Source: a virus
Lineage: Duplodnaviria; Heunggongvirae; Uroviricota; Caudoviricetes
Reading direction: 5' to 3' (one strand)
DNA length: 15,832 bases
IMG/VR virus record: IMGVR_UViG_2675903609_000009
Positions 1,462 through 2,257 of the stretch are shown here, in pieces (within the stretch, counting starts at the first letter, position 1; each line of letters opens with the position of its first letter). The position numbers and the translations under genes are program-made. The notes under the pieces are model-generated. The model made no database searches and had not been told where the DNA came from. It saw only the letters and a list, made by a program, of their open reading frames with translations.

Positions 1462-1973
1462 ATATGTCCTTTTACCACTACATCAAGTCATTGATTCGAT
1501 CAAACAATTTTCATTGAAAAAGTGCCAAAAATCGCAAATTGACTACACCATTAACTACACCGTTCGGTGCACTGTATGAAACAACGTGGAACAAATAGAC
1601 ACAAGAAATATACAGGCGGGTAATCTTTCCAGGGGGAAGCGCACCAATTCATGAGGGGCGTTAATGTCGATATGGGGATCCCCATAACGGGGCTACCGGA
1701 TTTTTTTTCCGGTTAACCTTTAATCAGGCTGGTGGGTTTTACATACCCTTGATCACCGTAATGATGATCCAGATGTGCACCTTTTCCACCAATGGCGGAA
1801 AAGCTCCAACCGTAACGATGATCGCTATGGTTGCCTCGATGGTCTGCGTGGTCATTATGACCGTTCAGCCAGTGACCTTAATCAGAATTTTTCGCTAAAA
1901 AATGACGTTGGCCACGTCATCCGGAAAGCACAAAATCACGTCGATTTTTAATGAACGGTTAAACCGTCTTTTT

Positions 1974-2008
1974 GTCACGGTGTGTCACTGGTTGTCACTC
2001 TCCGTCAC
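1974..2008 (+). repeat. Four GTCAC motifs at exact 10-bp spacing (1974, 1984, 1994, 2004); candidate protein-binding array near the left island end
   Basis: ttGTCACggtg tGTCACtggt tGTCACtctc cGTCACgatt read directly. Confidence 0.5.
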
Positions 2009-2257
2009 GATTGAGGTGGTGGTCATTCTGCCCGACCGCGCATTTTTGCGCTATCGGGAATATCAAACAGTTACCTCGCCGACTTCCTCAAATTGAGGTT
2101 TCCGAAAATATCAGAGCGGGTTAGCGATTAAGCTGACGAGTAATTAAACTGCGAAAATTTCGTAGTTTCTGAATATATTCCGGCCTGCTGGTTAACAGTC
2201 CTCAGATGTGAGGGATGTAGCCAGCGCAATTTTGCGCTTTGCTTTAATCTCAGTGAG

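Follow-up and report, generated by a model that had tools for sequence, protein, structure and literature searches.

The non-coding flank downstream of phoQ as the probable integrase-distal end of a capsid-forming phage-inducible chromosomal island

The stretch of DNA analyzed here, hereafter the window, consists of 15,832 nucleotides of the IMG/VR virus record IMGVR_UViG_2675903609_000009 (Caudoviricetes), in which the phoQ gene is followed by about 800 bp of non-coding sequence and then by a long array of genes of a mobile element. Our results indicate, with a probability that we estimate at roughly 0.88, that this flank (positions 1462-2257) is the end, distal to the integrase, of a phage-inducible chromosomal island of the capsid-forming type (cf-PICI), which is about 14.5 kb long and inserted at an attB site that overlaps the phoQ stop codon. 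The initial annotation of the window had described the flank as non-coding, and this description is borne out: phoQ (1-1461, plus strand) is an intact open reading frame (ORF) with a TAA stop codon at 1459-1461, and there is no credible gene in 1462-2257. The same annotation had the island abutting phoQ, with the 800 bp as a spacer in between. The island does adjoin phoQ, but the presumed spacer is the island's own distal end.

The position of the junction is directly established by comparison with island-free genomes, in which the empty site was found. All 5426 complete Escherichia coli genomes match the window up to this point, the match ends at positions 1467-1469 in most of them, and the homology with K-12 ends at 1469. 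The phoQ-roxA junction is unbroken in 4822 of the 5426 genomes and is split in about 600. In derivatives of K-12, roxA starts 75 bp past the phoQ stop; this gene, which had been noted as expected but missing, is indeed absent from the window, and in the island-bearing strains 2014C-3097, IAI39 and CFT073, it is located about 250 bp beyond the start of the integrase gene. The ATG of the integrase coincides exactly with the end of the window (15832), and the integrase-proximal attachment (att) site is placed about 170-180 bp past that edge, in agreement with the earlier proposal that this site lies outside the window. In occupied genomes, the match on the attR side includes the phoQ stop codon from its second base onward. 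The identity block AAATATGTCC (1460-1469), which overlaps the last two bases of this codon, is common to the attL of the window (GAATAAATATGTCC joined to TTTTACCAC), the attR of the relatives L002, L009 and CFT073 (GATAAAATATGTCC joined to ATACTTCAC) and the empty sites. The insertion keeps the stop codon of phoQ and the entire upstream region of roxA intact, that is, the satellite island resides in a documented site and damages neither of the neighboring genes. The same roxA (ycfD)/phoQ site is occupied by OI-51/CP-933C/Sp7 of O157:H7 and by the prototype PICI EcCICFT073 (PMC3378721), for which recombination at this site has been shown experimentally (PMC6092414).

The membership of the flank in the island is likewise a direct observation. 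The sequence to the right of position 1469 is missing from the empty-site genomes and is found, in pieces, at the integrase-distal ends of related islands. These pieces travel with islands inserted at phoQ, allC, yifB, clpS/cspD and yejO, as well as with 21 contigs from IMG/VR. The set of related flanks used throughout this work includes 29 island ends; the IMG/VR scan for the doubled motif described below yielded mostly unrelated contigs and 21 usable PICI ends. Because the flank is absent from island-free genomes and present at island ends elsewhere, we consider it to be island DNA rather than part of the chromosome. The lack of any annotated gene and a G+C content of 0.44-0.47, typical of an intergenic region, could suggest instead that the flank is the ordinary chromosomal region 3' of phoQ and that the island starts only at about 2258. 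However, flank conservation without the island was sought and not found among the 4822 genomes with an intact junction, K-12 homology stops at the point given above, and the same sequence occurs at island ends beside allC, yifB, clpS and yejO, so that this explanation is refuted and retains virtually no probability.

The island itself is an ordinary one: both its family and its site were known before. It extends from 1470 to about 175 bp past 15832, within the size range of cf-PICIs (about 10-18 kb) and with a dedicated att site, and is called a cf-PICI because its gene set matches the published description of these elements (10.1101/2022.09.08.507074). Pfam searches identified a tyrosine integrase (Int) with an arm-binding domain (14603-15832, minus strand; PF13356 and PF00589), an AlpA-family regulator/excisionase (14040-14228, minus strand; PF05930) and a primase (D5_N/DUF5906/Pox_D5), which together make up the int, AlpA and primase/replicase module of cf-PICIs, along with the portal protein and the large terminase subunit (TerL). 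In the near-identical relatives L002, where phoQ is annotated upstream of the closely similar island, and L009, a full module of capsid, protease, portal, connectors, HNH, small terminase subunit (TerS) and TerL is annotated, and no tail or lysis genes are annotated in either. The island thus has its own capsid and packaging genes without tail or lysis genes, with the capsid gene of this copy carrying a stop codon. The EcCIEDL933-family cf-PICIs have the same set (int, alpA, primase, capsid, protease, portal, connectors, HNH, TerS and TerL) in about 15 kb; in the copy analyzed here, by contrast, a nonsense codon interrupts the capsid gene and the attL spacer is altered. For cf-PICIs, induction and transfer depend on helper phages, such as those of the HK106/HK446 type, that provide the tails (10.1101/2022.09.08.507074).

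The last gene of the island, at 2258-2539 on the minus strand, encodes a 93-aa protein of no known family (it comes from the ORF list, and Pfam and NCBIfam returned no match for it); it is followed by the large terminase gene, and all later genes up to the integrase are on the minus strand as well. The 93-aa protein is encoded by the last gene in both classical (Rpp-type) and capsid-forming PICIs, including EcCICFT073, and its identity across IMG/VR contigs ranges from 72 to 100%; when this protein was used for a genome-wide locus search, only two loci were retrieved. A near-identical copy of the island with an identical attL region is present in Shigella flexneri SFBU1023. EcCICFT073 shares with the island described here the attB, the identity block, the integrase type and the 93-aa last gene, its attL is 91% identical to positions 1442-1804 of the window, and it has the same doubled motif in both att arms and similar repeat arrays upstream of alpA (see below). 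In contrast, EcCICFT073 possesses an Rpp-type packaging module and takes over whole phage capsids, whereas the present island has capsid and terminase genes of its own, and the parts of the distal flank beyond about 1805 differ between the two.

The initial annotation had named 1462-1600 as the probable location of the left att site, and we place the crossover at 1463-1469, with the arm elements extending to about 1604. The attP core was reconstructed from the sequences of related islands, and from its layout, which is that of a standard tyrosine-recombinase core, we infer a 7-bp crossover, TATGTCC, at 1463-1469, flanked by inverted core sites. The island-side core half-site, C', reads TTTTACCA (1470-1477) in the window and TTTTATCA in the other phoQ-site islands, where it is the exact inverted repeat of the integrase-side TGATAAAA; the reconstructed attP, TGATAAAA-TATGTCC-TTTTATCA, is therefore a perfect 8-bp inverted repeat with a 7-bp spacer. 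Islands of the yifB and clpS types have the same layout of inverted 8-mers around 7 bp, with other spacers, and the allC type shows a weaker version. Between the core and the arm sites, a pattern scan detected a match to the consensus of the integration host factor (IHF) at 1484-1496 on the minus strand (AATCAATGACTTG, consensus WATCAANNNNTTR); the CATTGATT motif is retained in most of the related flanks, and we consider this position a candidate IHF-binding site. The overall architecture resembles attP and attL of phage lambda, which likewise have a 7-bp overlap flanked by inverted core sites, an IHF site placed between the core and the arm, arm sites in direct repeat and phased repeats that serve a directionality factor; the lambda integrase, too, has a separate arm-binding domain. 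The sequences, however, are unrelated, the long arm of the island is the integrase-proximal one, and AlpA apparently doubles as a transcriptional activator.

The most conspicuous arm element is the doubled motif ACTACACC-ATTA-ACTACACC at 1542-1561 on the plus strand (copies at 1542-1549 and 1554-1561), a candidate pair of distal-arm integrase sites. There are no further exact copies of ACTACACC in the 15.8-kb window, and the pair is kept in 28 of the 29 related flanks. All complete islands examined, which represent four att sites, as well as CFT073 have a second, co-oriented tandem pair of ACTACACC 27-39 nt upstream of the integrase start (27 nt from the ATG in L002, L009, L012, L013, L014 and CFT073). 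The distance from the core to the center of the pair is 87-93 bp in the distal arm and 140-143 bp on the integrase side. Whereas the conservation and geometry of the motif are directly established, the identity of the binding protein has to be deduced. The integrase contains an arm-binding domain (Arm-DNA-bind_3, PF13356) at residues 8-95, and islands at four sites thus combine, at the level of sequence, repeated arm-type sites in both arms with an arm-binding integrase. We assign ACTACACC to the integrase, as its probable arm-type site, because this motif is confined to the att arms, whereas the NAACAA arrays discussed next occur elsewhere, too.

A comparable arrangement has been described for a related clade of PICI integrases, those of helper-embedded PICIs, in which a doubled TGTATTGC is located 81 and 132 bp from the center of attP; the integrase arm domains or AlpA have been proposed to bind it, and the motif has been reported as not found in other PICIs (PMC10111431). 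As in the island analyzed here, an 8-bp tandem doubled motif occurs twice per attP, co-oriented and at fixed unequal distances (81/132 bp compared to 87-93/140-143 bp). The motifs themselves, TGTATTGC and ACTACACC, differ in sequence, so that the two systems have only the geometry in common. The ACTACACC version of the doubled motif was not found in the literature that we searched.

Next to the ACTACACC pair, at 1578-1604 on the plus strand, there are three repeats with a period of 10 (GAAACAA, GGAACAA and GACACAA), which are candidate boxes for AlpA, the excisionase/activator. Phased NAACAA arrays are also present in the integrase-side arm, in the gap between the integrase stop and alpA (14511-14546, minus strand) and ahead of the capsid operon, where the array lies behind a terminator (9127-9152, plus strand); the latter two arrays have a period of 10-11. 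A shuffled window would contain about 0.007 such clusters on average, and the placement of the arrays is kept in relatives. The AlpA protein of EcCICFT073 is an activator of its own promoter and of island genes, and it triggers int-dependent excision while the expression of int remains unchanged (PMC6092414). We propose that the NAACAA arrays are probably AlpA boxes and that AlpA probably acts directly at the att arms as a directionality factor.

Taken together, these elements suggest the following scheme. Site-specific recombination has inserted the island at the phoQ stop codon, where attB is located, and has pushed roxA to the far side. The first ~145 bp of the flank constitute attL, with the chromosomal half-site, the crossover, C' (TTTTACCA), the IHF-type bend site, the ACTACACC pair, presumably bound by the arm-binding domain of Int, and the NAACAA repeats, presumably bound by AlpA. 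On induction, AlpA would bind the NAACAA arrays in both arms, Int would bridge arm and core sites, with IHF bending the DNA, and attL and attR would recombine at TATGTCC. Excision is predicted to restore phoQ-roxA (predicted attB, GAATAAATATGTCCATACTTCAC) and to form attP (predicted, TGATAAAATATGTCCTTTTACCA). The remaining ~650 bp are non-coding island DNA, namely, a conserved block up to about 1740 followed by shuffled hairpins, terminator-like sites and iterons, that appears to separate the long minus-strand operon of the island from the convergent phoPQ and, in the circularized form, from int.

The conservation of the flank is uneven. The end-module at 1521-1740, with the arm sites, a palindrome and a T-loop hairpin, is present in 19-28 of the 29 flanks at very high identity; a covariation test on 1595-1745 met with nearly identical copies. 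By comparison, the rest of the flank (1741-2257) is found in 7-19 of the 29 flanks in varying order and is a mosaic in which recombination has shuffled hairpins, GTCAC iterons and terminator-like sites. The arm motif and the stop codon of the 93-aa gene are 716 bp apart here and 393-1053 bp apart across 21 independent contigs, and a few hundred gene-free bases at the integrase-distal end are thus a trait of the family, not a quirk of this genome. Accessory regions of PICIs are located at the 5' or 3' ends of the element (PMC11364771); the 3' accessory slot of this island holds no gene.

The mosaic structure bears on the possibility that the flank is a remnant of an older, unrelated element, in a tandem or decayed array, with no working part of the present island in it. 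Apart from the limited occurrence of the mosaic among the relatives, a stub resembling the 3' end of the 93-aa gene within it (2059-2085; see below) marks a past recombination event. A remnant of this kind is nevertheless hard to reconcile with arm motifs whose distance from the crossover is constant across all site types and which are mirrored beside int, or with the bounded distance between the arm motif and the last gene; moreover, no second att core or integrase fragment is present. We regard such an origin as very improbable compared with the interpretation of the flank as the distal end of the island.

The repeats that had been singled out by the initial annotation, namely the ACTACACC pair, the palindrome ATGGGGATCCCCAT, the T8 hairpin and the two ACCTT(T)AATCAG copies, are all present at the positions given there, and they differ greatly in significance. 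The 14-bp perfect palindrome ATGGGGATCCCCAT (1672-1685) is conserved in islands at phoQ, allC, yifB and clpS; about 0.8 such palindromes are expected per shuffled window, so the one at 1672-1685 is unremarkable when taken alone. Another 14-bp perfect palindrome, AGTATGCGCATACT, is located just past the integrase stop (14571-14584). The hairpin ACCGG-A-T8-CCGGT (1695-1713) is, on chance grounds, equally unremarkable by itself, but across islands at four att sites its stem is kept and the length of its loop varies. In the clpS-site island L014, a module consisting of the T-loop hairpin and TTAATCAGGCTGGTGGG is duplicated (9700-10100); ~230 bp of unrelated sequence separate the two copies, and small cargo may insert at this position. 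The ACCTT(T)AATCAG pair, ACCTTTAATCAG at 1716-1727 and ACCTTAATCAG at 1875-1885, did not stand up as a meaningful repeat: a pair of this type occurs in 57% of the shuffles of the flank, which holds five other exact 8-mer pairs, and the observed one is at chance level and evidence of nothing. Among the relatives, several alternative inserts occupy the place between the two copies, and the segment seen here is one of them.

A variable, hairpin-rich non-coding segment (1741-1890) is replaced or shortened in IAI39 and L014. It includes hairpins at 1776-1808 and 1805-1829, the latter with a stem that is kept and a loop that varies between relatives, and the palindrome TGGTCATTATGACC (1849-1863). 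This palindrome, of the form TGGTCAT(T/A)ATGACCA and with ATG on both strands, recurs in the relatives, twice in L009 and also in L013 and L014, and in IAI39, two copies of it bound a 96-bp insert. Downstream, a terminator-like hairpin, ATGACGT-GGCCA-ACGTCAT followed by T5-6 (1897-1920, minus strand, the sense strand of the island), was read from the sequence and appears in both fold predictions; the consensus terminator scanner did not list it. The terminator scan did report a plus-strand terminator-like site, ACGGTTAAACCGT with CTTTTTG, at 1955-1975. It is followed by four direct repeats of (T/G)TGTCAC with a period of exactly 10 bp (1972-2008, plus strand), which are present in about 10 of the 29 flanks, with five copies in L013, irrespective of the replicase or packaging type of the island. 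The idea that these GTCAC iterons form a second replication site, similar to crr of P4, was dropped given that they co-occur with three different replicase types. Elsewhere in the window, at 10075-10304, directly downstream of the primase gene, there are tandem short repeats (CCTTATCTA, TCTACCTCCCTG, GGGTAGACAGT and GGTAGACAG) that fit the iteron-type replication origin described for PICIs.

At the far end of the flank, just downstream of the 93-aa gene, a conserved hairpin (AGCGCAATTTTGCGCT, 2223-2248, plus strand) has in this copy a T-rich tail, which makes it resemble a plus-strand terminator. Its stem (2223-2238) shows compensatory change between islands, with 4 of the 6 pairs changed on both sides and stems GCGC, GCTC, CCCA, GTGC and CCTCA; the covariation score is 0.40, compared to 0.15 in shuffled sequences, and none of 500 shuffles scored as high. 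A second copy of this post-gene hairpin, 186 bp away from the first (2038-2052), is combined with the stub that resembles the 3' end of the 93-aa gene (CAGTTACCTCGCC; the combined feature spans 2038-2085 and belongs to repeat families D3 and D5). The presence of this second hairpin copy with the gene stub implies that this end of the island was rebuilt by recombination, probably more than once. As for function, we propose that the hairpins could act as a buffer where the phoPQ and island operons converge and, after circularization, could shield int from read-through.

The strength of the predicted folding raises the question of whether this part of the flank encodes RNA. Over 1600-2257, both strands are much more structured than shuffled sequences, with fold z-scores of -8.6 for the minus strand and -4.8 for the plus strand. 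Neither a tRNA scan nor Rfam at the gathering score produced a match over the window, and Rfam at E<=5 gave none in 1400-2320; the att site is therefore not of the tRNA type and the flank does not belong to a known RNA family. A plus-strand small RNA at about 1770-1975, or a structured insulator lying where the phoPQ and island operons converge, would be compatible with the flank being the distal end of the island. It would account for the strongly negative z-scores, for the weak promoter-like site at 1738-1765 paired with the plus-strand terminator-like site at 1955-1975, and for the conserved 1805-1829 stem, in which most wobble changes fit the plus strand. Folding, however, is better for the minus strand than for the plus strand, the promoter match does not exceed the chance expectation (one found, 1.8 expected), and Rfam is silent even at the permissive threshold. 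We consider this possibility unlikely.

Protein-coding capacity was also assessed. The longest ORFs within 1462-2257 comprise 64, 58 and 50 aa, and none of the flank ORFs has a match in Pfam or NCBIfam. Among the RefSeq matches listed, out of 1145 E. coli genomes with pieces of the flank, almost all have nothing annotated under it, although a few genome annotations call a hypothetical protein of 53-90 aa. A search with the 58-aa ORF against 5.8 billion proteins retrieved just 12 sporadic E. coli/Shigella 'hypothetical' clusters, all at least 74% identical. A His-rich minus-strand frame (1713-1877) was considered as a gene remnant and dropped, as it lacks a start codon and is not kept in relatives. 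The several short ORFs nonetheless leave room for the suggestion that the flank encodes one or more small proteins, such as the His-rich frame, the plus-strand ORFs of 58 or 49 aa, or a peptide of 13 aa, MTVQPVTLIRIFR, whose start lies within TGGTCATTATGACC and whose ORF is preceded by AGGAG in IAI39 and L014. Against it, no protein family or diverged homologue was found, the frames are broken between relatives by replacements and by indels that are not multiples of three, and the variation is concentrated in the hairpin loops, with the stems kept. A coding function of the flank thus appears quite unlikely.

Because the flank lies directly downstream of terS-terL and its phased repeats and palindromes are reminiscent of terminase binding sites, it could be suspected to contain the DNA-packaging (cos) site of the island. 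The same flank modules, however, are found in classical PICIs with lambda-type, Rpp-dependent packaging, in which cos is located upstream of rpp (PMC9026076). Furthermore, other capsid-forming islands, among them IAI39 and AST85, lack the GTCAC iterons, and no lambda-like cosN was detected in the flank. In HK97-like HNH phages, cos is positioned between HNH and terS, and the corresponding gap in this island, where cos would be expected by analogy, is a masked stretch. We therefore assign a very low probability to a packaging role of the repeats. A variant of this idea, with the 93-aa gene as Rpp and the flank as a PICI cos, was dropped, given that Rpp is 135-153 aa long, that cos is found upstream of rpp and that the flank has no cosN-like sequence. 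The window contains runs of N at 4541-4671 (131 bases), 5635-5706 (72 bases) and 9328-9450 (123 bases), the first of which spans the gap between HNH and the small terminase gene, where an HK97-type cos site would be expected.

Several observations weigh against the interpretation of the flank as a functional attL-bearing end, or limit its reach. The attR of the window's own genome lies beyond the window and was read in relatives. The assignments of ACTACACC to Int and of NAACAA to AlpA draw on location and on the published genetics of a relative. The variant of the NAACAA repeat appeared to co-vary with the type of AlpA, but arrays at other places contain mixed variants, which leaves this association weak. 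The interpretation does not account for the palindrome and the T-loop hairpin, for the GTCAC iterons or for the conserved block at 1605-1740. Finally, the spacer between the core and the arm pair (1470-1541) is 72 bp long in this copy, which has a 5-bp deletion there, and 75-78 bp long in all other islands compared, and C' shows a T to C change (TTTTACCA instead of TTTTATCA) that none of the other phoQ-site islands compared has; the S. flexneri SFBU1023 copy (L010) shares both changes. Thus, this copy may no longer excise. In addition, the major capsid gene has an in-frame TGA at 8085-8087 where the relatives have TGG (Trp) and, judging from this substitution, is a pseudogene. Given the short spacer, the change in C' and the stop codon in the capsid gene, this copy looks decayed, which suggests that it is on its way to immobility.

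At a more general level, the results lead us to a tentative proposition, to which we give slightly less than an even chance of being correct as a whole, that the non-coding ends of these islands are a conserved control module rather than filler. Under this proposition, AlpA would bind NAACAA at its own promoter, the capsid operon and both att arms, coupling transcription with excision; ACTACACC would be the arm site of the largest group of E. coli PICI integrases, which use a single arm design with at least five chromosomal targets; and the GTCAC iterons, like the palindrome and the T-loop hairpin, would act as additional signals at the protein or RNA level. The new content of this analysis is modest: a base-level att map, an arm motif, ACTACACC, that is common to islands with several targets, and candidate AlpA boxes. 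Nevertheless, the map covers a widespread group of E. coli and Shigella PICIs and could guide the engineering of PICI-based delivery vehicles, and it offers a testable account of how AlpA may trigger excision without a change in the expression of the integrase.

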